A stretch of 64,000 nt of DNA. Origin: Deltaproteobacteria bacterium (GTDB lineage Bacteria > Bdellovibrionota_C > UBA2361 > JAGFJO01). Location of the stretch: NCBI GenBank assembly GCA_024102635.1, contig JAGFJO010000044.1, forward strand, positions 26,453 through 90,452, written 5' to 3'. Below, one piece after another: positions 7,544 to 42,160 of this stretch; the first letter of the stretch is position 1; every line of letters starts with the position of its first letter. The notes under the pieces are model-generated. The model was not told where the DNA came from and searched no databases. It worked only from the letters and a program-made list of their open reading frames with translations. Both the position numbers and the translations under genes were made by a program.

Positions 7544-8758
7544 TTACTTAGAGCGAATCTTCGCTTTCGTCCCGGCCTTGCGGGCCTGCTTTTTAATCAC
7601 AGAGGAGATCGCTTTTGTGCACAAAGCTTGCCCACTGGGCCTCTGAGATCTCTTCTCGATTGACTGCAAAAGTGGATATTCCGAGAATGTGGAGTACCCG
7701 CTGGCCTGAAGATAAGTATCAACCAGCTTCCTAACCGATTTTTTCAATTTTACATTCCTGGGCGATGCTCCGGCAGTTGTAATAGTTTGCCCCAGGCCAT
7801 TTTGGTAATCCGCGACTGTCAAGTTAACCAGCTCATCGACCCTAAGATTGTTCGCCAAGAGTAGGGAAGCGATGATCTTGTCTCGCAGGGCGGTAAGAGT
7901 CTTGAATTTTGAGCGAAGAATTCTCTTTTTGAACTCGCGGGCAATCTTTACCTTGCCGGCGGGCCTAATATCACCGCCCTCGCAGAACGACGCATTAAGC
8001 ACAGCCGGAGGAAGATTTTCCACCTGGCGGCACTCCTTAGCGAAGGTGCTGTTGGAGGTAAACCGCTCCTCGGTTGAAGCGTCAACAAGAGTGAAATTAT
8101 CGATTCTTACCCGCCCATGTGCGACCGGCACAAAGACGCCGAAGGCTGATACCGGTCCAGCCGAAGGCAGCGCAACACCTGAATTTGCCGGTGGTACCGG
8201 CCCCACCCCAGGGGTGTCTGGAGAGGTGCCATAGGTAAGCTCATGAGGTGACAATACTACCGCCTCGAAAAACCCTCGATCTACCTGGCGGGTGACCAGG
8301 TCCGAAAAATACCAGGTTCCGTTAATCAATAGCGCTAACTGGGAGCCGTCCGGGACTCCTTCGAGACTTATACCGCTAAGCCTTTGGTGGTATTCAACCT
8401 GAACGAGGCTGGAGACGTCGAAGCTTAACTCCTCAGTGTAAATTGTAAGCCCGCTAACCTCTCGTGCCCAGAATCCGGCCCCATCCTCAGAACCTCGCGG
8501 ATTGGAGTTTATATCCGTTACATTGCCAGGGCCTCCTGGGGGATGCACCTTCAAGTTTCCGATTTTTGCGCGTCTTATGCCTGGTAAAACTGCGCGCCAA
8601 TCCGCCACCTCAAAGGCATTACGGTGCGGGTTGTGAGCTGACCCGCAGTAGCTGAAGGTCTCGCGGTAGAATGGTGTAGCAGAAGCAGGTACAGTTGCCG
8701 CTAACGCCACTAACATTACTACTATAAAGGAAGTTGATTTGTGTGTTGCGTTTTCCAT
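7544..8758 (-). CDS. Secreted hypothetical protein whose C-terminal ~130 aa resemble a truncated tyrosine-recombinase catalytic domain (box I, no HxxR/Y)
   Basis: Signal peptide MENATHKSTSFIVVMLVALAATVPASA. C-terminus ALRDKIIASLLLANNLRVDELVNLTVADYQ...KKSVRKLVDTYL...PLLQSI...ISSVIKKQARKAG matches the integrase box I/box II pattern; the ORF stops before the HxLRH/Y region. Confidence 0.5.
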   Translation of the reverse strand: MENATHKSTSFIVVMLVALAATVPASATPFYRETFSYCGSAHNPHRNAFEVADWRAVLPGIRRAKIGNLKVHPPGGPGNVTDINSNPRGSEDGAGFWAREVSGLTIYTEELSFDVSSLVQVEYHQRLSGISLEGVPDGSQLALLINGTWYFSDLVTRQVDRGFFEAVVLSPHELTYGTSPDTPGVGPVPPANSGVALPSAGPVSAFGVFVPVAHGRVRIDNFTLVDASTEERFTSNSTFAKECRQVENLPPAVLNASFCEGGDIRPAGKVKIAREFKKRILRSKFKTLTALRDKIIASLLLANNLRVDELVNLTVADYQNGLGQTITTAGASPRNVKLKKSVRKLVDTYLQASGYSTFSEYPLLQSIEKRSQRPSGQALCTKAISSVIKKQARKAGTKAKIRSK

Positions 8759-14251: not shown

Positions 14252-14369
14252 AACTCTCCGCGTTAAGGCCTGCAGAATATAGCACCTTACCACGCATAAG
14301 TTAAGTGGCGGATCTCCGCGGAATGGTCCAATAAATGAAATTGTGATACCAGAGGAAAAGAGAAGATCA

Positions 14370-16466
14370 ATGAATCACCACACATTCAACGCTCCCCGGC
14401 TTGCACTTACAAAGCTAATCGCGGAGGCGACAATTACCTCTTTTTTAGCACTGTGGTGTTGCATTACCCCTGCTTTAGCGCAGCGCGTCGACGCACGGAT
14501 TATCACGGACTACGCTTCTGTTAGCGGAAACCAGAGAACACGTATCGGGGTGCATTTTAAGATTGAGCCGGGCTGGCACCTTTACTGGAAGAATCCCGGC
14601 GACTCGGGCATGGCCCCAAAAATTAAATGGACCGTGCCTGAGGCAGTCAAATTGTCTCCCCTCCCCTGGCCCGCTCCGAAGAGGCTTCCTGTCGGTCATC
14701 TGATGAACTTTGGATACGAGAACGAACTTCTACTCGGGGAGGAAGTTACTTTACGACCCGGCTTTGGCGGCGACAGGGCCACGATATCGGCAGAGATTGA
14801 ATGGTTGGTTTGCAAAGAGGATTGTTTGCCGGGTGAAGCAAAGCTTAGCGCCGATCTGGAAGTCACCAGAAACCGCGAAGAGAGCGCAGACAGTGCCATT
14901 TTTGAACGCTTTGAGAAGCTTTATCCTGTAAAGGGGGCAATTGAGTCCGCAACGTTCACGGAAAACTCTTCGTTCTTAGAGCTCTCGTTTAAGACTACGG
15001 ATAATATAAAGGTTGCTAAAGATCTCTTTTTTTTCCCCGAGGTTCCCGGCATTGTAAGAAATGCAGCCCCTCAGCGCTTTACGGCTGGCAAGGATCGCTC
15101 CACTCTGCGAATCGAAAAAGACACCAATGCGCACAGCATTCCCCGGACTTTTAAAGGGGTCCTCACATTTGATGGTTCGGGGGGACCAGAAGCTGTAACT
15201 ATAGATGCGCACGCCGCCCGCTCAGCCTCCGCTGCAGCTTCACTGCAAACAGTATTCTTTGCTCAGATCGCTCTCGCGTTTATCGCCGGAATAATTCTGA
15301 ATGTAATGCCGTGTGTCTTCCCGGTGCTTTCGATAAAGGTACTGCGGCTTATAGAGATCTCGGGTAAGGACACACAATTGATCCGGCATCACGGAATCAT
15401 GTTTTCGGCCGGTGTAGTTGTCTCCTTTCTAGTTCTCGCTCTCATTTTAATAGGGCTGCGCGGCCTGGGTGAGGGACTGGGTTGGGGCTTCCAGCTTCAG
15501 TCCCCTCTATTTGTGATGAGCATGGCGATGTTCATTACGGCGCTGGCACTTAATCTCTTGGGGGTCTTCGAGGTCGGAGCCTCTGTTCAGCGCGCAGCGG
15601 GAAAGATTGAGACAGGAAGCTCATCCGCCGGGTCTTTTGTAGACGGGGTGCTTGCGACTCTTCTTGCCTCACCGTGCAGCGCACCCTTCATGGGCGGCGC
15701 GGTAGCCTATGCCCTTAACGCCTCTTCCGCTGAAGGGCTTGCCCTATTTGCCGTACTGGGATTCGGAATGGCGTTCCCGTTTTTGCTGCTAAGTTTCTTT
15801 CCGGCGGCACTGCGCCTGCTGCCGCGGCCTGGCGAGTGGATGGAGCTATTTAAGAAGTTTATGGCCTTCCCACTTTTTGCCACTATAGCCTGGCTTGTCT
15901 GGGTATTTGGAAAGCTAAGCGGAGACAATTCAGCATTTGTGCTGCTGCTATCGTTAATAACGCTGTCTGTGGGCTTTTTTATTCTCGGCACCATCGGCCC
16001 GAAGCAGCGAAGCGCCAAATCGCGGCGCGTCTGCGGCGTGATCGGTTTGGGCATCGTATTGCTTTCAATTGGAGCGGCAGCGAGCTACTCCGTTGAGGCC
16101 AACGAACCGGCTAATCAGGATTCACTATGGCGTGAGTATGACGAGCACTTGGTGAATGCTGCCATTGCCGAGGAGCGCCCTGTCTTCATAGATTTTACCG
16201 CAGCTTGGTGCATCACCTGCCAAGTTAACAAAGCGCTGGTGCTAAGCGATGCGGCTGTTATAGAGGCATTTAAAAGGAGAGATGTGCTCTTACTGCGTGG
16301 TGATTGGACGCGTAGAAGCGAGAAGATTACAGCCGCTCTTTTAAGCTATGGATATAAGAGCGTTCCCCTGTATGTGCTGCATAACCCTGCGAAGAGAGTG
16401 CCCGTGATCTTTCCCTCTGTTCTCTCCATAAGTATGATAAATGACGCACTGGGCGAGTTGCCGTAA
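14370..16466 (+). CDS. dsbD: Thiol:disulfide interchange protein DsbD (protein-disulfide reductase)
   Basis: N-terminal DsbD-alpha-like domain, central polytopic domain and C-terminal thioredoxin with WCITCQ; start at the ATG at 14370 (the track uses the GTG at 14343). Confidence 0.85.
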   Translation: MNHHTFNAPRLALTKLIAEATITSFLALWCCITPALAQRVDARIITDYASVSGNQRTRIGVHFKIEPGWHLYWKNPGDSGMAPKIKWTVPEAVKLSPLPWPAPKRLPVGHLMNFGYENELLLGEEVTLRPGFGGDRATISAEIEWLVCKEDCLPGEAKLSADLEVTRNREESADSAIFERFEKLYPVKGAIESATFTENSSFLELSFKTTDNIKVAKDLFFFPEVPGIVRNAAPQRFTAGKDRSTLRIEKDTNAHSIPRTFKGVLTFDGSGGPEAVTIDAHAARSASAAASLQTVFFAQIALAFIAGIILNVMPCVFPVLSIKVLRLIEISGKDTQLIRHHGIMFSAGVVVSFLVLALILIGLRGLGEGLGWGFQLQSPLFVMSMAMFITALALNLLGVFEVGASVQRAAGKIETGSSSAGSFVDGVLATLLASPCSAPFMGGAVAYALNASSAEGLALFAVLGFGMAFPFLLLSFFPAALRLLPRPGEWMELFKKFMAFPLFATIAWLVWVFGKLSGDNSAFVLLLSLITLSVGFFILGTIGPKQRSAKSRRVCGVIGLGIVLLSIGAAASYSVEANEPANQDSLWREYDEHLVNAAIAEERPVFIDFTAAWCITCQVNKALVLSDAAVIEAFKRRDVLLLRGDWTRRSEKITAALLSYGYKSVPLYVLHNPAKRVPVIFPSVLSISMINDALGELP

Positions 16467-16508
16467 TAGCGCCTGTTGCATAAAACTCACCTCAATGAAG
16501 GAGATTAT

Positions 16509-17144
16509 ATGCGCTTTTCGAAGCTTTTTACGTCCACCATTTTTACCTTAGCCTTGCTAATTCAACTTAATGCTCCGTCGGCCTTCGCAGCCCCAAAGCA
16601 GGCAAAGATCGGCGAGAGTGCTCCCGAGTTTACACTTACCGATAACAACGGAAAGCAGCACCGCTTAAGCGACTATAAGGGAAAGTATGTGATCTTGGAG
16701 TGGTTCAATAAAGACTGTCCTTTCGTAAAGAAGCACTATGAGAGCGGCAACATGCAGAAACTGCAGAAGGAGGCTGCCGATAAAGGAGCCGTTTGGTTCA
16801 CAATCACATCAAGCGCAGAGGGTAAGCAGGGATACATGACAAATGAGATAGCCACCAAAGTTCTGGCAGATTCCAACGCACAGCCCACAGCTTGGCTGGC
16901 TGATCCGACAGGAGAAGTCGGCAAGGCGTACGACGCGCGTACAACTCCCCATATGTACGTTATCAACCCCGAGGGTAAGCTGGTTTATGCCGGTGCGATT
17001 GATGACAAAGCAACCACCGATGAAGATGACATAGCGGAAGCGACTAACTACGTTTCTTCCGCCCTTAGTGAATCGATGGCCGGACAGGAAGTGTCTACTG
17101 CGTCTACTCAAGCTTACGGCTGCTCGATAAAGTACGCCGGTTAG
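16509..17144 (+). CDS. Secreted thioredoxin-fold redoxin (AhpC/TSA-like)
   Basis: Signal peptide MRFSKLFTSTIFTLALLIQLNAPSAFA; WFNKDCPFVKKHY thioredoxin-fold active-site region; GGAG RBS before the ATG. Confidence 0.6.
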   Translation: MRFSKLFTSTIFTLALLIQLNAPSAFAAPKQAKIGESAPEFTLTDNNGKQHRLSDYKGKYVILEWFNKDCPFVKKHYESGNMQKLQKEAADKGAVWFTITSSAEGKQGYMTNEIATKVLADSNAQPTAWLADPTGEVGKAYDARTTPHMYVINPEGKLVYAGAIDDKATTDEDDIAEATNYVSSALSESMAGQEVSTASTQAYGCSIKYAG

Positions 17145-19169: not shown

Positions 19170-20600
19170 TTAACACTGAGAACTACCGATACACCGATTC
19201 GCATTTATCGGGCCGTAGCATTTTCCACCGAAATTCGCGTAAACATTGGGGCTACCGCTGCTGCGCTCTGCGTTACGAGCCACAGTTGCGCCGTTATACG
19301 CGGTACTCGACCCACATCCTATCCCGGCATAGTAGCGTGCTGCCCATCCGTTACCGGTTGCGTAAAGTCCGAGGTAGGCCGCTACTTTTCCGTTACGGTC
19401 AACCATGGAGATACAGTTAGGGAAAGGCCCCCGTGTACCGGGCTTGAGGATTAAACCAATGGTGTTGCGCCGAATATCGGTAAAGTGGTGCGAGCCTATC
19501 GTTTTATAGATATGACTGCTCGGCCATGAAGAGATAGAGTTACAAGAGGCCACATCCGAGGGGCCTCCACCGCCGCCGCTATCATCGTCATCGTCATCAT
19601 CGTCTCCTCCGCCGCTTTCCGATCGTAAGGTGTTTATATTGATGTGATCGGTCGGGATGCCATCGGCGGTAGCAACACTTGACGATTGGCCGTCAAAAGC
19701 GTTGTAGGTCGTGAATCCAGCAGAGGTCTTGATTGCTACCTCCTCTCCGGGACTAGAGGTAAAATTGCCCACTATTACATCTCCTGTACCGGGCAAGGTG
19801 CCGATGGCGATCCGGCTTCCATCAAAGTTATGAAAGTGTACCTCTGTATTGCCTGCCTTTTTCTTTGTAAAGCCAAGCACATCTATTCCACTTGCTTGCC
19901 GGACAGGAAACGGCCTCGGCCTAGCTCCCTTGCTTATAAATCCCGGAAACTTCGATATAGTTCTCGATTCTCCAGTCAGCGGATTTTTCAGTTTGATCTG
20001 CGATCGTCCTTTCTTATTTTTACCTGCAACCCCCAGCCAATCGAACGCGCCATCCGGGCTTGCAAAGAATATCCTATCTCCGGCGACTCCGAATCTCATC
20101 GTTGATGGGTTCTCCTGGCCTACCGCTCTATCAAACATGTCATACGATATGCTCCATTCTACGCGGCCTTTCTTTAATCGAGCCACTGCTGCATCTGCCT
20201 TCCCGTTTCCGTTAAAGTCCGCTCCGGAGATCGCTGTATCGCCATCACTGCCTAGTTCGCGCTCCTCCATGGTGGACTGGTCGTTTATGATCTTCCAAAG
20301 AAGCGCTCCGCTTGTATCATCAAGCGAAACCACTCCGATCTGAGGCGAACTCAGCCCCTTCCAAGGAGCAATGATTAAATGATCTCCCGTGCTCCCAATC
20401 GAGCCCAACGTGCTTGAGATCCCAGTTAGGGCACTTGTATAGCTCCAGTTCAGCGCCTGGTTCTGCTGTATCGAGACGAGCACATATTCGGAAACTCCAT
20501 CGTTATCAAAGTCTGTCTGTGTTGTTTGTGCTTCAACTGTGCGGAGTGCAAGCAGTGCTAGAATGAAGACGAATGAGATTCTCTTGATTAATTTAAGCAT
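19170..20600 (-). CDS. Secreted FG-GAP/VCBS-like repeat protein with poly-Asp/poly-Gly linker and Cys-containing C-terminal domain
   Basis: Signal peptide MLKLIKRISFVFILALLALRTVEAQ; DNDGVSEY and FNGNGKADAAV repeat motifs; GGGDDDDDDDDSGGGGG. Confidence 0.55.
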   Translation of the reverse strand: MLKLIKRISFVFILALLALRTVEAQTTQTDFDNDGVSEYVLVSIQQNQALNWSYTSALTGISSTLGSIGSTGDHLIIAPWKGLSSPQIGVVSLDDTSGALLWKIINDQSTMEERELGSDGDTAISGADFNGNGKADAAVARLKKGRVEWSISYDMFDRAVGQENPSTMRFGVAGDRIFFASPDGAFDWLGVAGKNKKGRSQIKLKNPLTGESRTISKFPGFISKGARPRPFPVRQASGIDVLGFTKKKAGNTEVHFHNFDGSRIAIGTLPGTGDVIVGNFTSSPGEEVAIKTSAGFTTYNAFDGQSSSVATADGIPTDHININTLRSESGGGDDDDDDDDSGGGGGPSDVASCNSISSWPSSHIYKTIGSHHFTDIRRNTIGLILKPGTRGPFPNCISMVDRNGKVAAYLGLYATGNGWAARYYAGIGCGSSTAYNGATVARNAERSSGSPNVYANFGGKCYGPINANRCIGSSQC

Positions 20601-20871
20601 CGGACTAACCTTGTAAACTTCCTTCATTACTCCATAAACCGGATTGGTGCACCACCCGGTAAATTCTTGAAAGGACACCCTGCCATAAGGACACCGTGGC
20701 GCAACCATTTAGATGAGCGGCCGGCGCAAAATGTCGCGGCTTGGGAACAAATATACCCAATTAAAAACGCTCAAGATCAGGAACTTCCTGGCCGTTCTTA
20801 TAGGTGATCTAACGGCATATAACTTGCAGACTTTAATTTAAACCCAAATTTTCAAGCGACTACGGAGTTTT

Positions 20872-21396
20872 ATGAAGTCACTCTTACGCCTCTTTTTCCT
20901 ATCGATCGGGACGGTGGCCCTGACCGCTATCAGCGCCTTCGCATTAGATGTCGGCGCAACTGCGCCGGAATTTTCGCTGCCGACAAGGGATGGCAAGCAG
21001 GTCACACTCTCCGATTTACGGGGTAAGGTAGTGTACCTGGATTTCTGGGCCTCTTGGTGCGGTCCATGCAAGCGCTCTCTTCCGTGGATGAACAAACTAA
21101 AACGGCAGTTCGGAGAGGAACGCCTGCATGTTTTGGCAGTGAATCTGGATACCGACAAAGATGATGCTGAACGGCTTTTAAAAGAAACTGCATCTAATAT
21201 TCCTGTGGCCTTCGACGCGGCTGGCTCTGTAGCGGAGCTCTACCGCCTCACGACCATGCCGACCTCTTTTCTAATAGATGGGTCAGGCAAGGTCTTGCAG
21301 GTCTATGAGGGGTTTCATGAGAAAGATGAAGAGAAGATTGAAAGTGCTATTAAAGAGCAACTTGAAGGAGGCATACGACATGTTAAAGCGAACTAA
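20872..21396 (+). CDS. TlpA/ResA-like periplasmic thiol-disulfide oxidoreductase
   Basis: Signal peptide; WASWCGPCKRSLPWMNKL CxxC thioredoxin motif. Confidence 0.8.
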   Translation: MKSLLRLFFLSIGTVALTAISAFALDVGATAPEFSLPTRDGKQVTLSDLRGKVVYLDFWASWCGPCKRSLPWMNKLKRQFGEERLHVLAVNLDTDKDDAERLLKETASNIPVAFDAAGSVAELYRLTTMPTSFLIDGSGKVLQVYEGFHEKDEEKIESAIKEQLEGGIRHVKAN

Positions 21397-21601
21397 TTTA
21401 TTGATCGCAGCGGTTGCGCTGATAGTTGCAATATTGGGATGCGCCGAAGTGAAGCCATGGCAGAAAGGCAATCTTGCTAAATCTCATATGGCCTTTGATA
21501 CCGATCCGGCCGAGTCGAGATTTACGCAGCATGTGTATACCTCAAAAGAGGGAAGCCATGGCGGATACGGAATCGGCGGCGGCGGTTGCGGCTGCAATTA
21601 A
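21380..21601 (+). CDS. DUF4266-family small lipoprotein
   Basis: MLKRTNLLIAAVALIVAILGC lipobox and C-terminal GGYGIGGGGCGCN; GGAGG RBS; overlaps the tlpA stop by 17 bp. Confidence 0.65.
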   Translation: MLKRTNLLIAAVALIVAILGCAEVKPWQKGNLAKSHMAFDTDPAESRFTQHVYTSKEGSHGGYGIGGGGCGCN

Positions 21602-21648
21602 GCGATTGTTTCCAGTTTTAACTCAAAGGTTCTTTCCTGGTTTTCGAG

Positions 21649-22794
21649 ATGACAAATTCATTCATAGACGAAAAAAAGCAACGCCTTTCCGGATACGAAG
21701 CGTTACCTAAATTGGTGTCTGCTGCGCTTGCAATTCCTGCCGTAGCAGCGACTGTACCGGCTAACGCCGAAAGTCCTTCAGAAGGGCCGATCATAAAGTT
21801 CTTTTACGGGGACTATGATGATAGGCAGCAGGGCGCAAGCCGCATGCACGTTAAAGCTCCGATGGTCTGGGTTAAATCTCCTATAAAAGATGGACTTGAA
21901 GCTGAGGGTAGCTTCGTGTGGGATAGTATGGGAGGCGCCTCGCCCTACTATCATAATACTTTAACTGGAGCCTCCGGACTGGGTGTCGAAGATATCAGGC
22001 GGGCAGGTGATTTGAAAGTAACCAAATACTTCGAGGACTTCAGCTTGGGCGGCGTGGTGGTTGCATCAGATGAGGATGACTACACCTCTATTGGCGGCGC
22101 AATTGAAAGCCGCATCTGGACCGCAGATAAAAATACCACTTTTACTGTCGGTTTCGGCGGAAATGAAGATGAGATTACTTCCAGCATAGCGCCCAATCTT
22201 GACGAGTCGCGCACGGTATTTAATGCGATCTTTGGAATTACTCAGGTAATAAATTCAGTTTCAATTATCCAGAGCAATATAACCTTATCTACCGGGGATG
22301 GATTTTATTCTGATCCCTACAAAACGCTGGATCGCAGACCCGAATCACGTGACCAATTGGCCTGGCTGACACGTTACAATCTGTATATTCCCGAACTGGA
22401 AGGATCACTGCATAGCGACTACCGCTTCTATACAGACAGCTGGGAGGTGAACTCCCATATGTTGGAATTCGCATGGTACCAGCCGATCGGCGAACGCTTC
22501 ATGGTGCGCCCCGGCGTACGATATTACTCTCAGGACTCTGCAGAGTTCTGGGTAAATGAGTTTCCACCTGAAGACCTAGAGAGCTTTATTACGGCCGATC
22601 AGCGCTTATCCAGCTTCGGTGGCGTAACCGGCAGCTTTAAAGTCATGGCCGATCTTTGGTACGGTTTCTCAGCGGACTTCGCTTATAACTATATGGAGCA
22701 GCGTCCTGAATGGCAGCTAGGCGGAGGGGGTTCGGATATTATGCTTCCATTTACAGCACATTGGGTCACAGTCGGCCTATCCAAGCAGTTTTAA
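21649..22794 (+). CDS. DUF3570-family protein (exported)
   Basis: N-terminal signal-like segment; family assignment from memory of the conserved DUF4266-DUF3570 pairing; contains the motif YYHNTLTGASGLG. Confidence 0.55.
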   Translation: MTNSFIDEKKQRLSGYEALPKLVSAALAIPAVAATVPANAESPSEGPIIKFFYGDYDDRQQGASRMHVKAPMVWVKSPIKDGLEAEGSFVWDSMGGASPYYHNTLTGASGLGVEDIRRAGDLKVTKYFEDFSLGGVVVASDEDDYTSIGGAIESRIWTADKNTTFTVGFGGNEDEITSSIAPNLDESRTVFNAIFGITQVINSVSIIQSNITLSTGDGFYSDPYKTLDRRPESRDQLAWLTRYNLYIPELEGSLHSDYRFYTDSWEVNSHMLEFAWYQPIGERFMVRPGVRYYSQDSAEFWVNEFPPEDLESFITADQRLSSFGGVTGSFKVMADLWYGFSADFAYNYMEQRPEWQLGGGGSDIMLPFTAHWVTVGLSKQF

Positions 22795-22849
22795 CGTGAT
22801 GGCATGAGATACGGCCCGGATTCCGCCTGAATAGCTCTACTCCGATTCA

Positions 22850-25027
22850 CTAAGCTGGGACCGATTCTCTCTCTCTGTTCCAAAACCGGTACTGCCCAAT
22901 TGCCTTTATGAATTCCCGGTTTAGCTCATCTAGTGTTGCCGCCGGCTCTATACCGGCTACATCTTTTGCTTTCTTCAAAGTCTCGGCGATTGCGCGGGCT
23001 GTAATTACTCCATTATTATTCCGCACTGCCGTGCCTTCCTGGTCCAAAGATATACCCGGCAGCCCCGATAGCAAATCAACCGCTTCCGCCATTGCCGCAA
23101 TCGGTTTGCAGTGCATGAACGCCTCGCGGATAAAGTGAATCGCTTTGCCACTGCCGCGTAAAGCCTTAACGTTTTCCGCCCCGCTAGGGATGTAAACGGC
23201 ATCGAATAGAACGGAGGCCGTAGTTAAAAAGTTTTCATCTACTAAAACTTCCACATTGTCGCTCCCCTCGATAGCGCCGCTCCGCGGAGCAACTACCTTG
23301 CACATTACTTTCTCCGATTGAAGTGCTGCTTTAAGAACCTCTACCTCCTGTCCCCTTACTCCATCTGCGGCAAGTATCGCCACCTTTCGCCCCTTAATCG
23401 CCCTCGTGCCATTCTCCATACTTAGCGCCTGAGATGCCCCTACCCCCTTCTTTTTCCGGCTCGGCCGGGGAGACGATGATTTTTCCAGGTAGGTAAGATC
23501 GCCGTTGATGTCCTTGACACCAACAAGCGGGCCTGCCCGTTCGGCGATCTCCGGAGATACGTTATAGAAAAGCTTTATAATCCGTTCGCGGATGTGCATG
23601 TTTTCCACTTTCCCGATCTCGAATTTAATCGCCTCGACTATATGTTCTTTCTCCGGCGCACTCATGCTGTTCCAGAATAGCTCAGCCTGTGAAAAGTGAT
23701 CGTTGAAACTCTCCGGCCGGGCGCGCAGCTTCGTACCCTGCTGCTTTTCGGTGTAGCTTACGAAACCGCGCTCCTTATCCTCTCGCGGCCGTCCTTCTTG
23801 CAAAGAGTTTGGTTCATAATTTACGCGCCCTGAACGTATGGTATGGCGCATGAATCCATCTTGGTTATTGTTGAAAATAGGGCACTGCGGCCGATTAATG
23901 GGAATCTCCGCAAAGTTTGCGCTTTGAAAGCGGTTGATCTGTGTGTCCAAATAAGAGAAGAGCCTCGCTTGCAACAGCGGATCATTGGTAAAATCAATTC
24001 CCGGAACCACATGACCGGGATGAAAAGCGACCTGTTCCGTCTCCGAAAAGAAATTATCGGGATTACGATTAAGCGTCATCTTCCCTACCCGCCGCACGGG
24101 CACAAGCTCTTCAGGCACAATCTTAGTGGGATCAAGGATATCAAAGTCGAATTTTGCAGCCTCTTCCTCGGTGAAAAGCTGAAAGCCAAGTTCGAATTCA
24201 GGATAAATGCCGTTCTCTATTCGCTCCCATAAGTCACGGCGATTGAAGTCGGGATCTTTTCCGGCAATCTTCTGCGTTTCATCCCAAACAAGTTGGCTAA
24301 CTCCCTCAAGCGGCTTCCAATGAATCTTACACAGAGTAGACTTCCCTTTTTCGCTTACAAGCCTGAAGGTGTGAACGCCGAATCCTTCCATCTGAGCGTA
24401 ACTTCTGGGGAGCGCTCTATCGGAGAGCACCCATAGAAGCATGTGAGTGATCTCCGGCGTAAGCGAGGCAAAGTCCCAGAAGTTATCATGAGCGGCGGAT
24501 GCTTGCGGCATTTCGTTGTGCGGCTCCGGCTTGATGGCATGCACTAAGTCGGGGAACTTTATTCCATCCTGTATGAAGAAAATAGGAATATTGTTACCCA
24601 CTAAATCGTACACGCCCTCGGACGTATAAAACTTCGTGGCAAAGCCGCGCACATCCCGCACCGTATCGGCCGAACCGCGAAACCCTACCACGGTTGAAAA
24701 GCGCGTAAAGACAGGCACCTCGTGCTGTGGATCGATAAGGAATCTCGCCTTGGTGAAGGCCTTCATTGAATCGTCATATACAGAGAACACTCCATGAGCT
24801 GCCGACCCTCGCGCATGCACTACCCGCTCCGGTATTCGCTCATGGTCGAAATGCATCATCTTCTCCCGGAAGATGAAGTCCTCCATTAGAGTTCCGCCAC
24901 GCGGTCCCGCGGTAAGCTGATCTTGATTGTTCGCAACCGGGCACCCCTGATTGGTCGTCAAGGTTTCTGTATCCTTGCTGTCAAGTGCGCTCTCGCTCGG
25001 TCTTGGCACCGCATCCTTCCTCTTCAT
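22850..25027 (-). CDS. katE: Large-subunit catalase HPII
   Basis: [15 protein letters not shown] and RLFSYLDTQ motifs; C-terminal DJ-1/PfpI-like domain; start at the ATG at 25027 (MKRKDAV) with an AGGAGAT RBS. Confidence 0.9.
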
Positions 25028-25214
25028 ATCTCCTCTATTCTCCTTTATTCCCTTGACGCTAAGCCCGGTTGGGGGCTTCCTGATGCAAAGAACAAACACT
25101 ATACCGTTGAGGTTGGATCTTCTATGTTAAGGATCAGTCTAAATCACCAACTCTCTTAGAGCTGATTAGTATGCGCGAAGAAGGGTGATAATCCAGCCGA
25201 ATTGGTGCGCTGAT

Positions 25215-25766
25215 CTATTTGGCAGCAACCGAACTGCCCTCGAACAATATCTTAGAAGTCTCTGGGTCGATAACCGGCCCCAACTCATATACGTTGCGAT
25301 ATCCGTATGTATAGAGCGCGGGAAGTGTCGAAAGATTAAGAGATGCGCCAAGAGCTTTGGTGGCGAAATCCTGCGGGGAATTCTCCACATTATTGTTGCA
25401 GTAAATTAATATTCTCGTCTCTTTGGAAGGTACTACTTTGGCCAGCGCCTGTTCTGTGAACTCCGTAAACGGAAGCGATTTTGCTCCGGCAATATGAATC
25501 CGCTCATACCTCTCCGCAGTGCGTGCATCCAGAATGATTGTGTTCGGATCGCCGGCCATATCTATAAATCGCTCCTCACTAACACGCCTCGATTCTCTGT
25601 CGGCGTGTGCCGCCATAACATCTGCCAGAAAGGCTTTTTGATCTATTAACCTGTTTGGTATCGGTGTGGACTGACCAAATACAGCCAATGGAAAAGAGAT
25701 CACTAAAACAAAAAGTAAAACCCGCACCGTTTCCTCATTACAAAAGGGGATGAATAATTTTACCAT
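25215..25766 (-). CDS. Secreted single-domain rhodanese-like protein
   Basis: Signal peptide; rhodanese fold with active-site loop IYCNNNVENSP; AGGGGAT RBS at the ATG at 25766. Confidence 0.7.
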   Translation of the reverse strand: MVKLFIPFCNEETVRVLLFVLVISFPLAVFGQSTPIPNRLIDQKAFLADVMAAHADRESRRVSEERFIDMAGDPNTIILDARTAERYERIHIAGAKSLPFTEFTEQALAKVVPSKETRILIYCNNNVENSPQDFATKALGASLNLSTLPALYTYGYRNVYELGPVIDPETSKILFEGSSVAAK

Positions 25767-25926
25767 ATCCCCTGATTTCATTGGCAGGAAAGAGGATTCG
25801 CACTTATTCGGAGTGGATTCTGAGTCTTAAATAGGCCCGCTGCCGATTACGATTATTTCAACGGATTATTTTAGGATAGGCGACTGAAATCCTGCTGTTT
25901 ACAAATTGTTGTAGTGAGCTTAATTC

Positions 25927-26829
25927 TTGGTAATGCCGTTGCATCTATATACATTTCCCTTCAAAGCTTTGGGTTCATCCTGCGAGGTGCAGCTCTATCA
26001 TACCGGCAAGCTGCCTGACCTGGCGCGCACTATCGCCGCCGAGGTAGAGAGGAAGGTATCAGATGTAGAGAGACGATATTCCCGATACAGAGATGAGAGT
26101 ATCGTGAGCCGCATCAACGCACGTGCCGGCGGGGAAGCTATAGAGGTGGACCCTGAGACTGCGGATCTCCTTGATTACGCCGGGAGCGCATTTGAGCAAA
26201 GCGGAGGGGTCTTTGATATTACCTCCGGGGTTCTAAGAAGAGTGTGGAATTTTAAGCATCCCCGTGTACCGCAGCAGGACGAAATCAGGGAGATGCTGAA
26301 ACTGGTAGGATGGGACAAGGTCGAGTGGCATCGCCCGCTCATTAGGCTGAAGCTGCCAGGAATGGAGCTTGACTTCGGTGGTTTCGGAAAGGAGTACTGC
26401 GTAGATGCCGCCGTTTCAGTGCTTATGAAGCACGGCGTTTCAAACGCCCTTGTGAATCTCGGCGGAGATGTTCGAGTTCTTGGCGGGCATCCTGACGGGC
26501 GGCCGTGGAGTATCGGCATAGCGCATCCACGCCGGGCCGGCGAAACAGCAGCCAGCTTAGAGCTTAAAAGCGGGGCTCTCGCTACAAGCGGCGATTACGA
26601 GAGGTACTTTGAAGTCGATGGGCACCGTTATTGTCACATATTGAATCCGAAAACCGGTTGGCCGGCCGACGGATTTCAATCGGTCACGGTCTGTAGTGAC
26701 CTCTGCCTGGTGGCTGGAACAGTTTCTACCACCGCAATGTTGCTTGGAGAAGGCGCGGGTCTTGAGTTCTTACGTTCTAGCGGCGTACAGTTTCTAAGCA
26801 TCAATAAGAGAGGAGAGACTGTTGTTTGA
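25927..26829 (+). CDS. apbE: FAD:protein FMN transferase
   Basis: ApbE family; DFGGFGKEY motif. Confidence 0.85.
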   Translation: MVMPLHLYTFPFKALGSSCEVQLYHTGKLPDLARTIAAEVERKVSDVERRYSRYRDESIVSRINARAGGEAIEVDPETADLLDYAGSAFEQSGGVFDITSGVLRRVWNFKHPRVPQQDEIREMLKLVGWDKVEWHRPLIRLKLPGMELDFGGFGKEYCVDAAVSVLMKHGVSNALVNLGGDVRVLGGHPDGRPWSIGIAHPRRAGETAASLELKSGALATSGDYERYFEVDGHRYCHILNPKTGWPADGFQSVTVCSDLCLVAGTVSTTAMLLGEGAGLEFLRSSGVQFLSINKRGETVV

Positions 26830-27924
26830 AGTTTTCATCTCACCTTGCGCCGCTTTACTGGCCACGGCTTTACCGGCAAGCGTACCGCAAGCGGCATTTA
26901 TGTCCTTTCCCCCCGAGTAGCGGCGAGCTACCGGCTGCCTAAGATGCTTGGATAGCGCATCACGGAAGAATTTCATCTCGCTTTCACTGGGAGGTTGATA
27001 TTGACCTCTGGAATCAGTGGCGTCAATCAGATCAAGTCTTACGGGGAGATCTCCAATTAGAGCGGCTAGCTCGACTGCGTCCTGTTCGGAAACATTGAAC
27101 CCGGAGATACAAACATAAGAGAGGTTGATTCTGTCACGGCGCGATTCGCTGTAGCGCCGAGCGGCCTTGATGACCTCATTCACAGGAGTTCGTGCGGCCA
27201 CCGGGACTAATGCAGCGCGTTTTTCATCGGTTGCGCCTCCTAGACTAATTGAGAGGCGAAAGGGATGCTTCTCAATGGTAAATCTTTCAATTTCGGGGAC
27301 CAATCCTACTGTGCTTATGGTGATGGCCTTGGCGCTTATTGCTCCGCTTACAGGATAGCATAGTAGCTTAGCAGCGGCGATCACTCTGTCGTAGTTTAAA
27401 AACGGCTCTCCCATACCCATGAAAACAGCTCCCGTAACCCTCTTGTTCTGAGAGCGCGCAATTTGCCGGGCTTTGATAAATTGTTCTACTATCTCCCAAG
27501 TGCGAAGGTTTCTGCGCTGCGCCATCTTTGCCGTAGCACAGAAAACGCATCCCATTACACACCCTACTTGGGAAGAAAGGCAGATACTTACACAGTTCTC
27601 TTTGTGCAGGGGGATTATTACCGTTTCGACAGGCAGGTTGTCCGGTGTATAGAAAAGCAGTTTCTGGAAGCCGTCTATTTGTGACACTGCCGACTCAGCA
27701 AGTTTAAGACAACGAGAGCAATCGAACAGCGCGGCTTTCGCTGCGGAGATAATTCCTCGGCTAGTCCAATCGACCGGCACCATTTCTCCTCTTTCTAATG
27801 TAGAAGCCAGTAGGCGCCGCATCTCCCTAGGTGATACGCCATGCTTTTTGCAAGCGCTTTCAAGCGCTGCGGGAGGCAAATCTCGCGGGTCAATTGAGTC
27901 GAAAGCTGTAAGTGCCGTTAACAT
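26794..27924 (-). CDS. rlmN: 23S rRNA (adenine2503-C2)-methyltransferase, radical SAM
   Basis: CVMGCVFC radical SAM cluster; RlmN/Cfr architecture; 36-bp convergent overlap with apbE. Confidence 0.85.
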   Translation of the reverse strand: MLTALTAFDSIDPRDLPPAALESACKKHGVSPREMRRLLASTLERGEMVPVDWTSRGIISAAKAALFDCSRCLKLAESAVSQIDGFQKLLFYTPDNLPVETVIIPLHKENCVSICLSSQVGCVMGCVFCATAKMAQRRNLRTWEIVEQFIKARQIARSQNKRVTGAVFMGMGEPFLNYDRVIAAAKLLCYPVSGAISAKAITISTVGLVPEIERFTIEKHPFRLSISLGGATDEKRAALVPVAARTPVNEVIKAARRYSESRRDRINLSYVCISGFNVSEQDAVELAALIGDLPVRLDLIDATDSRGQYQPPSESEMKFFRDALSKHLRQPVARRYSGGKDINAACGTLAGKAVASKAAQGEMKTSNNSLSSLIDA

Positions 27925-28755: not shown

Positions 28756-30789
28756 TTGGGGGAAGCATTGGGAGATCAATCAGATTCATTTCGTCGAGCA
28801 CGTTTTCCCGGAGCAGCAGTTTTGGCGCTGCTGGCTGCGCTTCTGCTCTCACTCTCAGGGGGAGGACTTAAATTTGAGCGGCAGCTACTTGATACGATTT
28901 CTTATACTTCAACCGGCAACGTATATGGAGCGGAAGATCTTATAATCGTCGCCCTCGATGATATAACCTTTGACCTTATCTCTGAAGAGCTTGACGGGCT
29001 AACGTGGCCCTTTCCGAGAGCTGTGCATGCGCAACTGCTTAAAAACTTGGTTGCGGCAGGCGTTAAACAGGTATTCTTTGATGTAGTCTTCGACATACCT
29101 TCGCGCTTCGGCGAAGAAGACGATCTGGCGCTTGCCGAATTGATGCCGCAACTTCCAATTTACTTGGCTGCTGAACAGAGTGGACAAGCAATAACTCCTC
29201 CGCTCGAGATATTGACATCCTCGGGAGGAACAGCTGTGAATGCAGCGCTTCCGGTTGATATGGACGGAATCATTCGATGGACACCTGGAGCCCGAATATT
29301 ACCGCGTAGTTTTGGCGAAGGAGTGTCATATCTGCTAGGTAAGCCACTGCCGGTCATATCGGCTTCATCCCTGCCCGCCGCAGCCGAGATGCTAACGCAA
29401 TCGCCCTCAACTGCCCCCGGGCTTTTACGGTACCTGGGTCCGGCAGGAACGATTCGCCGTATTTCATATTACGAGCTTTACTCCACCGAGCTTGCTCGCC
29501 CCTATTTTAAGGAACTACGGGGCAAAACAATTCTGATAGGCAGCACCCCGAGCGTATCGATAACTCCGGAGCAAGCCGCCGATACCTTCCTCTCCCCGCT
29601 CGGACTGATGCCGGGAGTAGAAATTCACGCCAACCACGCTCTAGCCTTACGCTCGAAGAAACTTCCGGAACCGTTGCAGGGCTGGCCTATTCCAGCATTA
29701 TTATTAATCTGGAGTGTCATTCAGAGCTGGGGCTCTAGGCAGTGGCCCGATCCTCTAAAGGGGTTTGCCTTTATTTCTGTTTCGCTTCTTGTATGGATTG
29801 CTCTGGTAGTAGTTGCTCTACAATTCGCAATCATTGTACCGATACTGCTGCCTGTCACTGTGTGCTTCTTTTTGTATATCGCTTCATTGGCTGTGCATTA
29901 TCTGACAGAGCGCGATGAGAGGCTAATAACGCGTGCTCAACTCTTCCATTATCTTCCGGCTAAAGTAGCAGAATACGTTTTGAAGAATCCGACGCGGCTC
30001 GCAATGGGTGGTGACCGCAGCGAAGCAACTCTGCTGTTTGCAGACGTTGCAGGCTTTACAACGTTATCGGAGGAATGCCCGCCTGAGGATGTTTTAAGTC
30101 TGCTGCAGGAACATCTGCAAGCTATGACGGAGGTGATTTTCCAAAACCAGGGCACCCTCGATAAATATTTAGGGGATGGCATAATGGCCTTCTGGGGCGC
30201 ACCCGAACCGCAGGAAAATCATGCTGATCTGGCTCTTAAGGCCGCGGTGGACATGCTCACTAAAGTGGAACAACAGAATGTTGAGAGAAGAAGACGCGGC
30301 GCCCCTGAGCTTGTTCTGCGTATTGGTCTACACAGTGGAGAGGCTATCGTTGGCAATATTGGTTCCGATCTATTTATCGATTACACGGCTATCGGAGATA
30401 CAGTAAATACCGCCGCACGGCTTGAGGGGGTAAATAAAGTTTTCGATACCCGCCTTATCGTAAGCGACGATTGCCTAGAGCGATTGAAAAGTCCCCGGCA
30501 GTTCAGAACTTACCCGCTTGGCCGTGTGGCGGTTAAGGGGAAATCGGATGCAGTTGGAATAAGCACCGTAGTCGATCCAAAGGAAGAAGAAAAGTATCGT
30601 GTGCTGCAATCCGCCCTCAAAAGCTTCGACTCTGGAAACCTTGAGAGCGGCAAAAGAGATTTAATCGAATTACTAACAAAGGACCCGAGCTTTGTTCCTG
30701 CCCGCTTTCACCTAGATCAGATAGCAAAGAGCGGCGCGCTTCTGGGCGATGAAAATGGCCGCACCTATTGGCAGCTGGATGCAAAGTAA
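28756..30789 (+). CDS. CHASE2-sensor class III adenylate/guanylate cyclase
   Basis: N-terminal TM, periplasmic CHASE2, TM bundle, then LLFADVAGFTTLSE...GDGIMAFWGAP cyclase motifs; TTG start with an AGAGGGG RBS. Confidence 0.8.
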   Translation: MGEALGDQSDSFRRARFPGAAVLALLAALLLSLSGGGLKFERQLLDTISYTSTGNVYGAEDLIIVALDDITFDLISEELDGLTWPFPRAVHAQLLKNLVAAGVKQVFFDVVFDIPSRFGEEDDLALAELMPQLPIYLAAEQSGQAITPPLEILTSSGGTAVNAALPVDMDGIIRWTPGARILPRSFGEGVSYLLGKPLPVISASSLPAAAEMLTQSPSTAPGLLRYLGPAGTIRRISYYELYSTELARPYFKELRGKTILIGSTPSVSITPEQAADTFLSPLGLMPGVEIHANHALALRSKKLPEPLQGWPIPALLLIWSVIQSWGSRQWPDPLKGFAFISVSLLVWIALVVVALQFAIIVPILLPVTVCFFLYIASLAVHYLTERDERLITRAQLFHYLPAKVAEYVLKNPTRLAMGGDRSEATLLFADVAGFTTLSEECPPEDVLSLLQEHLQAMTEVIFQNQGTLDKYLGDGIMAFWGAPEPQENHADLALKAAVDMLTKVEQQNVERRRRGAPELVLRIGLHSGEAIVGNIGSDLFIDYTAIGDTVNTAARLEGVNKVFDTRLIVSDDCLERLKSPRQFRTYPLGRVAVKGKSDAVGISTVVDPKEEEKYRVLQSALKSFDSGNLESGKRDLIELLTKDPSFVPARFHLDQIAKSGALLGDENGRTYWQLDAK

Positions 30790-40099: not shown

Positions 40100-41605
40100 T
40101 TAGCAGTTGAATTTATGCCCATTTCTCTTGCACCACTCGGAGAAGTCAGGTAGCGCAAAAAGCTTGGCTAACTTCTCGTCTACCCCGTGATTCACGGCCT
40201 CCTCGAAACGCGTCTCCGAGATCAGCCCCTTCAGCCTAGATAACGCTTCGCGAACTTCTCGCGTGATATTTTGCAGCATCTGTTCTTCAACGCTAAGTTT
40301 CAACTCGGAAATGGCTTGCTTACGTTCAACCAGGTAGCGCGACTCCAGCGTAAAATCGGTTTTGGAGGACGCCTTACCGGAGGATTTTTGTGCTCGCGGT
40401 TCTTTTATATGCTGTGTAGAACTCGCTCCATCCCCTCTCGAGTAACCGCCCATGTCCTCCCCGGGCAGCATAAAGCTTTCAACATTCTCGACCGCCCGGT
40501 ATAGAAACCCGACCGGGCTTCTCTGTACTAGCTTGCTATTCCCGGCTATCAGCTTGTCCACATGCTCTATGACTCTGCGTATCTTGCCCCTAAGCTCAAG
40601 TGATCGCCCAGACACCAGGCGGCGCGCTTGAGGCGCAGAAATGCCTCTATTGATCAGTAATCCTGCGAGCTCACGATCTTCATCGCCAACCGGCTCACTT
40701 GGCGGCAGCAACATCGGCTGCACAGGCCTTCCGCTCTCCTCTTCGGTCGGTTTATCCAAAGAGCGCGGTTTACCGCGTGCAGCATACATCACTATTTCGC
40801 AGTCGCTGCCCTTACCGTAATACTCCACTTTGGAGAGAAAGCCCGTATGTATCAGCTCCTCAAAAGCCGGATCAAGCTGCTGCCGTATCGAACTAGTATA
40901 TTTATAATTCCGGGAAATACCGACCTTTTCATGCGCGAAGCAAAACAAATTCATCTGCACTTTGGCTTTATACCAAAAATGCTTATCCAGAAACCGGTAA
41001 ACCCGCTTTGAAATAGCGCTTTTCAAACTCAAATAAAATTCGAGGTCGAGTTTTTTTATGAACCCGACCTGAAAACTTTTGAAAAGCACTTCACTCCAGA
41101 TGAAAAAACTGCGCTTGTTCTCCCCGTCCCTTCCGTCGTTGATCTCATACCCGTCGATAATGCCGAAATTCTTCGTATGGTGCAGTTTTGTTTCATTGTC
41201 GTAAAAAGCGTTGGTGGCCTTTATTCTAACGCCGCTAAGCCGATCCAAGGCGCGCTGCAGCCGGGTATAACTGCGGCCCTCGGTTGTCCATCTCAAGGTT
41301 TTGAGTATCTCATAGCGAGTAAAATACACCTTTGGATTTCGCATCCCGCTCTCGACGGTTAGCTTCAAAAGACCAAGCAGAACCTCGTCATCCGATGCTG
41401 TCGGTAATCCAAATTTATCGGCCCCGGTAATTATCCATTTTCGATCCACCAGTTCGCCGTTCTTTGTTCGAATATTGTCGCTGAACTCTAGAGTTTTAGT
41501 TTTAGGATTAGAGCGTGTAGATAGAACCGTTAGTGGAAATTCAGCCAAATTCATCTCATCTCTCGAGAGACGTTTCGGCATCTGTGTAAGTATTAACTGA
41601 TCCAT
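40100..41605 (-). CDS. repA: Plasmid-type replication initiator protein RepA (RPA family)
   Basis: N-terminus MDQLILTQMPKRLSRDEMNLAEFPLTVLS, characteristic of the replication initiator protein A family; followed by an iteron array; ATG at 41605. Confidence 0.7.
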   Translation of the reverse strand: MDQLILTQMPKRLSRDEMNLAEFPLTVLSTRSNPKTKTLEFSDNIRTKNGELVDRKWIITGADKFGLPTASDDEVLLGLLKLTVESGMRNPKVYFTRYEILKTLRWTTEGRSYTRLQRALDRLSGVRIKATNAFYDNETKLHHTKNFGIIDGYEINDGRDGENKRSFFIWSEVLFKSFQVGFIKKLDLEFYLSLKSAISKRVYRFLDKHFWYKAKVQMNLFCFAHEKVGISRNYKYTSSIRQQLDPAFEELIHTGFLSKVEYYGKGSDCEIVMYAARGKPRSLDKPTEEESGRPVQPMLLPPSEPVGDEDRELAGLLINRGISAPQARRLVSGRSLELRGKIRRVIEHVDKLIAGNSKLVQRSPVGFLYRAVENVESFMLPGEDMGGYSRGDGASSTQHIKEPRAQKSSGKASSKTDFTLESRYLVERKQAISELKLSVEEQMLQNITREVREALSRLKGLISETRFEEAVNHGVDEKLAKLFALPDFSEWCKRNGHKFNC

Positions 41606-41734
41606 ATTCAAAAACTTGAAAGGAACTTTAACTTACTTTTAGTTAGTTAAACAATCAGTGTTAAGGTTACTAGTTAGATAGTGAGCGGCACTGATTGCAA
41701 AAGATAAGAGATACTTACAACCGCAAATTTCTTT

Positions 41735-42005
41735 CAGATCACGACGATCCTTAGTTCGCATCACGATAAGATCATAACTCGATGCACGATCAAAATTATC
41801 TCAGCGCGCGATTCGATTTATTCTCGTGCTCGATACTTCTGATTCGGAAGCACGAACTGGATTTACGATGGATCACGACACTTACCCGAGCGCACTATAC
41901 TTAATGCTAATAAAACGAATAAAAACAGGTAGTTAGCATAGCCAAGAGCGGGTAATAAGTACAAGGCAGTCTGCGGAAGCAACGATTTACTTGGTGTCAC
42001 GATTC
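41735..42005. promoter_or_regulatory. oriV-like iteron array: at least 7 copies of (A/G)(T/C)CACGA at 22-23 bp spacing, one inverted, in an AT-rich region
   Basis: Core hexamers at 41739, 41761, 41784, 41824 (inverted), 41850, 41873 and 41997, read directly from the sequence. Confidence 0.5.
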
Positions 42006-42160
42006 GACGTCTGCTCTTCTCTGCCCCTCTCTCACTTAAAGAAGGTTCCTAAGTGCTACTATTTTTTTCTAACTGTGGCTATTCCTGACTTTAATCTGGA
42101 TCTCCATACCCTTTTCTGCAAAATTACTTATCTCAGTGCACGTATCTTTTGGGGGTTCAG

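Follow-up and report, generated by a model that had tools for sequence, protein, structure and literature searches.

DUF3570 proteins came to notice as targets of covalent flavin attachment when Méheust, Huang, Rivera-Lugo, Banfield and Light mined the neighbourhoods of 'orphan' apbE genes (eLife 2021; PMC8238504). In its treatment of these clusters, that paper describes ApbE and DUF3570 together with a thioredoxin-like protein and DUF4266, in 227 clusters with DsbD and 316 without, and identifies two conserved [S/T]GA[S/T] motifs in DUF3570. The DUF3570 of Chlorobium luteolum became flavinylated on co-expression with its cognate ApbE (pair ABB24424.1/ABB24423.1), the signal being abolished only when both serines were changed to alanine, and a DUF3570 deprived of its signal peptide was flavinylated by ApbE in the E. 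coli cytoplasm, though it was recovered in the insoluble pellet. The same account records the ferrous-iron transporter VIT1 in 25 DUF3570 clusters and proposes a hybrid thioredoxin-like/flavinylation system fed by DsbD, with uncertain function. A 2025 review of ApbE leaves DUF3570 unmentioned and knows leaderless ApbEs only for cytoplasmic substrates (PMC12052999). Here we analyse a TlpA-DUF4266-DUF3570 gene set and its apbE in a 64-kb stretch of contig JAGFJO010000044.1 (the window, meaning the whole stretch of DNA analysed), which comes from a metagenome-assembled genome (MAG) labelled Deltaproteobacteria and closest, among named relatives, to Bdellovibrionales, Oligoflexia and Bdellovibrionota MAGs.

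The TlpA-DUF4266-DUF3570 plus ApbE core of the window is very probably a further example of the DsbD/DUF3570 flavinylation-associated system described in 2021. An earlier note, made from the letters of this DNA, had read it as an uncharacterised flavin/thiol module; as regards the flavinylation substrate that label does not stand, since the families, their linkage and the flavinylation of DUF3570 were all published in 2021, and it holds for the physiological role alone. Beyond what that paper sets out for the system, our analysis adds a barrel prediction with an outward flavin loop, the leaderless character of the linked ApbEs, and a surface-sorted cytochrome c encoded upstream in Oxalobacteraceae. 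These three additions make the function of the system more testable. The window itself contributes one more cluster member, from a MAG labelled Deltaproteobacteria with Bdellovibrionota-like relatives.

Conservation of the TlpA-DUF4266-DUF3570-ApbE neighbourhood

The first gene of the operon encodes a TlpA/ResA-like thiol:disulfide oxidoreductase (20872-21396, + strand; Pfam AhpC-TSA E=4e-26, Redoxin E=6.5e-26) and is followed by genes for a DUF4266 lipoprotein of 73 amino acids (21380-21601, +; PF14086 E=1.6e-23, full model covered) and a DUF3570 protein of 381 amino acids (21649-22794, +; PF12094 E=9e-52, 176.7 bits against a cut-off of 25). The TlpA and DUF4266 genes overlap by 17 nt, a 47-nt gap leads from DUF4266 to DUF3570, and a convergent katE gene lies 55 nt past the DUF3570 stop. 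The sole ApbE within the window, a flavin adenine dinucleotide (FAD):protein flavin mononucleotide (FMN) transferase of 298 amino acids (25933-26829, +; PF02424 E=3.8e-84, model positions 1-263 of 266), is encoded 3.1 kb downstream of DUF3570. A full-length DsbD with α, β and γ domains (14343-16466, +; Pfam DsbD_N, DsbD_TM and Thioredoxin_7) lies 4.4 kb and five genes upstream of tlpA and seven genes upstream of DUF3570; it is an associated, not contiguous, part of the module. Directly after dsbD the Pfam scan placed an AhpC-TSA/Redoxin protein (16476-17144), so that this pair spans 14343-17144. Families were assigned by a Pfam scan with curated cut-offs and an NCBIfam scan with equivalog cut-offs. 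The ORF map and the Pfam matches bore out every open reading frame (ORF) of the earlier note in position and family, including the three hidden Markov model matches it had proposed as a check (PF14086, PF12094 and PF02424), the overlapping or short junctions, and the dsbD-redoxin pair it had placed at 14.4-17.1 kb. A promoter and terminator scan of 20.6-27 kb gave a site count no higher than in shuffled sequence.

Conservation was assessed over 82 DUF3570 loci including the window, gathered from a scan of species-representative genomes (12-sequence alignment; 80 loci) and from the metagenome loci L001 and L084, and annotated with the window proteins as queries. DUF4266 adjoined DUF3570 in 82/82 loci, and a TlpA homologue was found upstream on the same strand in 80/82. 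ApbE occurred within 10 kb of DUF3570 in 64/82 loci and DsbD within the same distance in 47/82, usually immediately after ApbE or DUF3570. This four-gene linkage is far beyond chance, TlpA-DUF4266-DUF3570 being collinear in 80-82 of the 82 loci, and when the neighbours at the 80 genome loci were clustered, the five known families alone proved common across lineages. The pairing of DUF4266 and DUF3570 near ApbE and thioredoxin genes, which the earlier note had put forward, is borne out both by these neighbourhoods and by the clusters described in the 2021 paper (PMC8238504). Some genomes carry two paralogous loci, one with ApbE and the other with DsbD and without ApbE (e.g. Undibacterium sp. 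Ji42W, L016 and L050).

In the closest relatives of the window locus, L001 and L084 (53-59% identity), TlpA, DUF4266, DUF3570 and ApbE are contiguous, and in L001 the DUF3570 stop and the ApbE start overlap. A third close relative, on the contig of protein P0003, has ApbE 7 kb downstream with neither katE nor rhodanese between. L001 shares with the window the upstream VWA, 4HBT and FG-GAP-like genes, and L084 shares the downstream genes for a CofH-like radical S-adenosylmethionine (SAM) protein, a tRNA synthetase, two flagellins, SLT and an RPA initiator; the synteny of these flanking genes shows the loci to be orthologous.

Acceptor motifs, predicted barrel fold and leaderless ApbE

A profile search of 1.84 billion cluster representatives returned relatives of DUF3570 numbering 3359 at a threshold of E<=1e-3 and 2377 at E<=1e-10; the family is widespread, not huge. 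In the window protein, two acceptor-type motifs fall in the flavinylation region of the gene (21922-21990, +), which encodes loop L2 between strands 3 and 4 of the structural model. Site 2, T106-G-A-S109, i.e., the YYHNTLTGASGLG motif, is an exact [S/T]GA[S/T] fit; it is here that the earlier note had guessed DUF3570 to be an ApbE acceptor, a guess that was correct in kind, as the C. luteolum homologue is reported to be flavinylated at two motifs (PMC8238504). Site 1, D92-S-M-G-G-A-S98, lies ten residues upstream, is the more conserved of the two and had been overlooked; it has Gly at the first, least constrained position (GGAS98) and retains the Asp at -6. Alignments of 64 and of 12 homologues gave the consensus DSxSGASPxYHxTLSGASGxG for the acceptor region. 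Among the 64 homologues G96, A97, S98 and A108 were invariant and D92, G107 and S109 were at least 90% conserved, and a family-wide motif count (n=142) found site 1 in at least 139 members and site 2 in 121. Ser98 and Ser109 of the window DUF3570 are, on the basis of these alignments, the predicted FMN acceptors.

A Burkholderiales subgroup of DUF3570 (L011, L024, L031, L033, L073 and L076-L078) lacks the second motif (...SGASPAFHSYGLVKLRD...). In two further variants, P0101 and P0118 (503-507 amino acids), a low-complexity insert of ~130 amino acids rich in Pro, Ser and Gly follows the first SGAS and replaces the second motif; since the acceptor loop tolerates so large a disordered insert, it is probably exposed. 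A third tetrapeptide, QGAS at residues 61-64 (21829-21840) in the first hairpin turn, is not conserved among homologues and is probably a chance match.

The AlphaFold2 model of DUF3570, built from the 64-sequence alignment, consists of 16 long antiparallel strands (predicted local distance difference test, pLDDT, 86.0; predicted template modelling score, pTM, 0.82). A Foldseek search against the PDB returned outer-membrane barrels exclusively, with probability 1.00 (OmpG at 3e-12, FadL, CymA), among them the 16-stranded PelB, PgaA and BcsC barrels at a TM score of ~0.5. The protein ends in ...GLSKQF, its terminal Phe381 being at least 90% conserved, and contains zero cysteines. DUF3570 is confidently predicted from this model to be a 16-stranded outer-membrane β-barrel. 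In the strand map all even-to-odd connections are 2-5 residues long and all long loops are odd-to-even, and both acceptor serines lie in the 19-residue loop L2. Outer-membrane proteins generally have their termini and short turns on the periplasmic side; by this rule the long loops, L2 included, would face outward, and both flavin sites would be on the outward side. Of the 60 invariant or near-invariant positions, 47 are in long loops or the adjoining strand halves, against a background of 61% (p=0.004), and the charged residues among the conserved positions (R65, R117, E142, D144, D222, K225, R230, R259, R291 and R319) would fit the expectation for a flavin-phosphate pocket in the model.

Judged by eye, the window DUF3570 has a Sec-type signal peptide over about residues 1-40 (21649-21768), with a basic n-region, the h-region LxSAALAIPAV and a cleavage site after ...PANA and before ES. 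This leader is unusual: the n-region is long and very basic, reaching up to ~35 residues in homologues, and the h-region keeps its sequence among homologues (LLxAALAIPG, with conservation of at least 90% at A25, A26 and P30), unlike that of ordinary signal peptides. A twin-arginine translocation (Tat) signal, which would suit cytoplasmic cofactor loading, was considered and rejected, as an RR-type motif was present in 6/64 N-termini and absent from the window protein.

The window ApbE has neither a signal peptide nor a lipobox, an in-frame TAA at 25921 standing four codons before the ATG at 25933, and the NCBI annotation of an identical ApbE (P0121) is likewise 298 amino acids long. Residues 8-12 align to the first strand of crystallised ApbEs truncated of their signal peptides, so that the protein starts 7-11 residues before that strand. 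Measured from the DUF3570 stop, the equivalent of this start falls at -13 to +133 nt (median +7; 59 loci), and 10 codons or fewer are available upstream of it in 42/62 linked loci; in the remaining 20, mostly high-GC, the only possible ApbE extension lies within the DUF3570 ORF in another frame and is non-hydrophobic. Of the 120 best ApbE homologues, nearly all have a length of 290-330 amino acids, and no signal-peptide-bearing ApbE was seen next to DUF3570 across the 82 loci. The DUF3570-linked protein is an ApbE by fold and Pfam but of a leaderless kind, as are about 60 other linked ApbEs. One may then ask in which compartment, and at what stage, an exported barrel receives its flavins. Because the linked ApbE has no export signal and the predicted acceptor loop is beyond the outer membrane, flavinylation most likely acts on the unfolded DUF3570 precursor, probably in the cytoplasm ahead of Sec export. 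The published co-expression is consistent with this: there, DUF3570 without its leader acquired flavin in the E. coli cytoplasm yet was found in the insoluble pellet, which indicates that ApbE acts independently of a folded barrel (PMC8238504).

Proposed electron path and competing explanations

The window TlpA-like protein has the signal peptide MKSLLRLFFLSIGTVALTAISAFA, cleaved before LD, and its active site is WCGPC; in the NCBIfam scan it came closest to ResA and TlpA, with scores short of the equivalog cut-offs. DsbD is the probable source of its reducing equivalents, and the DsbD of L027 is a full α-β-γ protein. The window DUF4266 has the lipobox AILG before the lipidated Cys, Ala at +2 and a mature length of 53 amino acids; it ends in GGGGCGCN, with the Gly-rich tail GGYGIGGGGCGCN containing a CXC. 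In the 79 DUF4266 homologues extracted, the lipobox Cys was present in 79/79, Asp at +2 in 0/79, and mature length was 53-60 amino acids; the tails were Gly-rich and ended in CGC(N/S) in all 79, with GGCGCN in 78/79. Under the Lol rule, lipoproteins without Asp at +2 are anchored in the outer membrane, and the absence of this residue suggests such an anchoring for DUF4266. The presence of a flexible thiol tail on an outer-membrane lipoprotein adjoining a cysteine-free flavinylated barrel suggests, in turn, that the tail may reach the DUF3570 flavins through the barrel lumen.

Directly upstream of TlpA in 43-45 Oxalobacteraceae loci of the 80 genome loci lies a gene for a protein of ~710-745 amino acids (e.g. 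L012:6461-9054, L027:7053-9284). It combines an N-terminal cytochrome c domain (CxxCH; PF00034 24.5 bits against a cut-off of 21.3) with immunoglobulin (Ig)-like repeats and a JDVT-CTERM signal (GGGGC...DP-TM-RRR), and is preceded by an Rce1-like (MrtJ-type) protease gene. Such a surface-sorted cytochrome, encoded next to the module, is in keeping with a transfer of electrons to the cell surface. The GGGGC of the JDVT-CTERM signal resembles the DUF4266 tail GGGGCGCN. Haft had noted in a preprint that, in a few species, the TlpA, DUF4266 and DUF3570 genes adjoin those of JDVT-CTERM proteins (bioRxiv 10.1101/2023.06.07.544157). The corresponding position in the window is held by a divergent gene for a secreted protein of 477 amino acids (19170-20603, -) with weak FG-GAP similarity, the poly-Asp linker GGGDDDDDDDDSGGGGG and a Cys-rich C-terminal domain. 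This FG-GAP-like protein is divergent upstream of TlpA in L001 (41% identity) and L084 (54%) as well and is absent from the Burkholderiales loci; a search found no relative of it in the PDB. The idea that its conserved C-terminal Cys is an analogue of a processed JDVT signal is unsupported, the terminal Cys being shared with L084 and not with L001.

The linkage of the genes and the conservation of two acceptor motifs are direct observations, and they make us highly confident of a four-gene envelope redox module; the steps by which it would work are conditional. ApbE would transfer FMN from FAD onto Ser98 and Ser109 of the unfolded DUF3570 precursor, probably in the cytoplasm before Sec export, and the assembled barrel would hold the flavin-bearing loop and most of its invariant residues on the long-loop (outward or lumenal) side. 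Electrons would pass from cytoplasmic thioredoxin to DsbD and the periplasmic TlpA-like CxxC protein, and onward through the CXC tail of outer-membrane-anchored DUF4266 to the DUF3570 flavins and some acceptor, although the direction could be reversed. In its most complete form, which we put forward tentatively and hold to be rather unlikely as a whole, DUF3570 would be an outer-membrane flavoprotein flavinylated as a precursor in the cytoplasm by its coupled leaderless ApbE, exported through Sec and assembled by the β-barrel assembly machinery (BAM) with its flavins at the outward mouth of the barrel, and serving as a thiol-to-flavin, non-haem conduit to the surface via the DUF4266 tail; this tail would be kept reduced by TlpA and DsbD and would extend through the lumen to the flavins, and the acceptor in Oxalobacteraceae would be the JDVT-sorted cytochrome c.

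Several considerations speak against this account. Flavinylation of the window DUF3570 is predicted by homology, and its site 1 is GGAS, not [S/T]GAS, with Gly in that position in 3/142 family members. The sidedness of the loops comes from the AlphaFold2 secondary-structure map and general outer-membrane protein rules, the pLDDT of L2 being below 50, and the path from DsbD through TlpA and DUF4266 to FMN is a model only. Most of the comparison loci are from Oxalobacteraceae, so that the counts are not independent events; the pattern nonetheless spans Burkholderiales, one Pseudomonadales MAG and the Bdellovibrionota-like group. That katE and rhodanese acquired a role in the module in this lineage would be compatible with their absence elsewhere. 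Finally, our view is limited to 64 kb of the genome, and a second, exported ApbE could be encoded outside it.

That last point leads to an alternative which we judge unlikely, namely that the linked leaderless ApbE is not the enzyme that flavinylates DUF3570 in vivo, an exported ApbE encoded elsewhere modifying an unfolded or BAM-bound intermediate in the periplasm, or that the linked enzyme itself reaches the periplasm by non-classical export and acts there. Wherever the action of ApbE on exported substrates has been characterised, it takes place in the periplasm, and the S. enterica ApbE failed to complement without its leader (PMC12052999); moreover, 18/82 loci have no ApbE within 10 kb, which implies that ApbE can act in trans. 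The tight coupling of ApbE and DUF3570 in 59 loci, at the median distance of +7 nt, argues instead for a dedicated enzyme-substrate pair, as does the lack of any signal-peptide-bearing ApbE beside the 82 loci, and cytoplasmic co-expression was reported to be enough to flavinylate the homologue (PMC8238504). We keep flavinylation of the precursor by the linked ApbE as the preferred reading.

A different role for the barrel is also conceivable, though improbable in our estimation: DUF3570 might be primarily a substrate channel or receptor, e.g. for iron, whose flavins reduce the passing substrate (assimilatory Fe(III) or siderophore reduction) with no relay to a surface partner. The VIT1 transporter in 25 of the published clusters (PMC8238504), the resemblance of the fold to the substrate channels OmpG, FadL and CymA, and conserved charged loop residues that could bind a substrate would all suit such a role. 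Neither the window nor any of the 80 clustered genome loci, however, has an iron-transport gene adjoining the module, and the conserved extra neighbour in the 43-45 Oxalobacteraceae loci is the surface-sorted cytochrome c-Ig-repeat protein, which points to electron transfer from protein to protein.

Between DUF3570 and apbE, on the opposite strand, the window carries a KatE-type large-subunit catalase of 725 amino acids from its ATG (22850-25027, -; Pfam Catalase E=1.8e-170, with Catalase-rel and Catalase_C) and a secreted rhodanese-like protein of 183 amino acids from Met6 (25215-25781, -; PF00581 E=2.7e-10) that starts with a hydrophobic leader. The catalase lacks a signal peptide and scores 959.5 bits against NF008422 (HPII), below the equivalog cut-off of 1102; it is a large-subunit catalase and not necessarily the equivalog of E. 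coli HPII. Secreted proteins of ~170 amino acids form the widespread family to which the rhodanese belongs (Bdellovibrionota, Cyanobacteria, Leptospira), and across the window protein and 80 homologues, which carry signal peptides, the active-site loop IYCNNN is invariant and atypical, with an invariant Cys and without Arg. Its homologues at 62-63% identity on other Bdellovibrionota-like contigs adjoin neither katE nor DUF3570. A KatE, rhodanese or RlmN-like radical-SAM homologue was found within 10 kb of DUF3570 in 1/82 loci, the window alone. The simplest history is that, in the window lineage only, a 3.1-kb rhodanese-katE segment was inserted between DUF3570 and apbE on the opposite strand; by this comparison KatE and rhodanese are outside the conserved module and the catalase link is an accident of gene order.

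The earlier note had counted katE and rhodanese among the parts of the module and leaned towards a defence against oxidative stress. Neighbourhood conservation upheld TlpA-DUF4266-DUF3570(-ApbE) and not the other two genes, and the stress reading is left resting on an insertion specific to the window lineage. A dithiol-flavin couple could make or consume hydrogen peroxide, by analogy with sulfhydryl oxidases. That all six genes form one oxidative- or thiol-stress defence module, the flavin and thiol proteins working with the catalase and the sulfurtransferase, is nevertheless very unlikely: this analogy, the physical interleaving of the genes in the window and the nearby DsbD-redoxin pair speak for it, but KatE and rhodanese homologues are missing from the 81 other DUF3570 loci, including the three closest relatives, katE-rhodanese is a unit of its own on the opposite strand, KatE without a signal peptide belongs to a different compartment, and the rhodanese homologues stand in unrelated contexts. 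The term 'periplasmic', which the note had applied to the set, was likewise imprecise: it does not suit KatE and ApbE, which lack signal peptides, or DUF3570, a predicted outer-membrane barrel.

Flanking features and comparison with known systems

The 3' end of apbE overlaps by 36 nt the 3' end of a convergent gene for an RlmN/Cfr-family radical-SAM methyltransferase (26794-27924, -; NF011040 344 bits, below the cut-off of 441). This gene and a CHASE2-adenylate/guanylate cyclase gene (28756-30789) are absent from L084 and look like a further insertion of this lineage, downstream of apbE. A 404-amino-acid ORF (7544-8758, -), some 12 kb upstream of the module, weakly matches Phage_integrase (E=7e-6, narrowly below the cut-off). 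Farther downstream, at 40100-43808, a plasmid-type RPA replication initiator gene (40100-41611, -; PF10134 E=4.7e-19) stands beside ParA (42149-42949) and ParB (42942-43808), and the cumulative GC skew of the window has its minimum at ~40-42 kb; RPA-parA-parB and the skew minimum together suggest a plasmid-like or secondary replicon whose replication origin falls within the window. In L084, which is syntenic, the locus likewise ends in an RPA gene.

Compared with the DsbD/DUF3570 system as presented, and named after DsbD, in the 2021 paper, the window has the same four families (PF12094, PF14086, a thioredoxin fold and PF02424), with DsbD in the vicinity, a C-terminal CXC on DUF4266 and both acceptor-type sites. 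It differs in that apbE is detached by the 3.1-kb katE-rhodanese insertion, that DsbD (PF02683) is seven genes away, beyond the ±5-gene span from DUF3570 used there, that the thioredoxin-fold protein is of the Redoxin/AhpC-TSA type, not PF13899, which is represented here by the γ domain of DsbD, and that site 1 starts with Gly. In its sections on this system, the paper neither calls DUF3570 an outer-membrane barrel nor comments on the leaders of the ApbEs in the clusters.

The substrates of ApbE in the NqrC/RnfG FMN_bind family (PF04205) are modified by the same enzyme family at a short motif that likewise ends in the modified Ser/Thr (D-x-x-s/t-g-A-S/T). In contrast to these, the predicted DUF3570 acceptor is a β-barrel loop, not an FMN_bind domain, and has two sites ten residues apart; further, the ApbE of the NqrC/RnfG system is a periplasmic lipoprotein, whereas the DUF3570-linked ApbE has neither leader nor lipobox. 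In the latter respect it is like the cytoplasmic ApbE of Klebsiella pneumoniae, which serves a soluble fumarate reductase and also lacks any signal peptide (PMC12052999). The K. pneumoniae substrate is itself cytoplasmic, however, whereas the linked substrate in the window has a Sec signal peptide and an outer-membrane barrel fold; if the proposed order of events is true, the system would exemplify a cofactor being attached ahead of Sec export.

With the JDVT-CTERM/MrtJ system the DUF3570 loci share a gene adjacency, seen here in 42-45 of the 80 genome loci; the window differs in having neither a JDVT-CTERM protein nor an Rce1-like protease, another secreted protein being encoded upstream. A functional parallel would be the MtrAB/MtrC porin-cytochrome conduits. 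As we hypothesise, both would pair an outer-membrane β-barrel associated with redox cofactors with a periplasmic or lipoprotein partner that may reach into the lumen, and the Oxalobacteraceae DUF3570 loci encode a surface-anchored cytochrome c alongside. The MtrB barrel has ~26 strands. The two are not homologous, DUF3570 having, by prediction, 16 strands and covalent FMN on the barrel together with thiols in place of multihaem chains, so that the module, if the proposed path is true, would be a flavin/thiol counterpart of the porin-cytochrome conduits.

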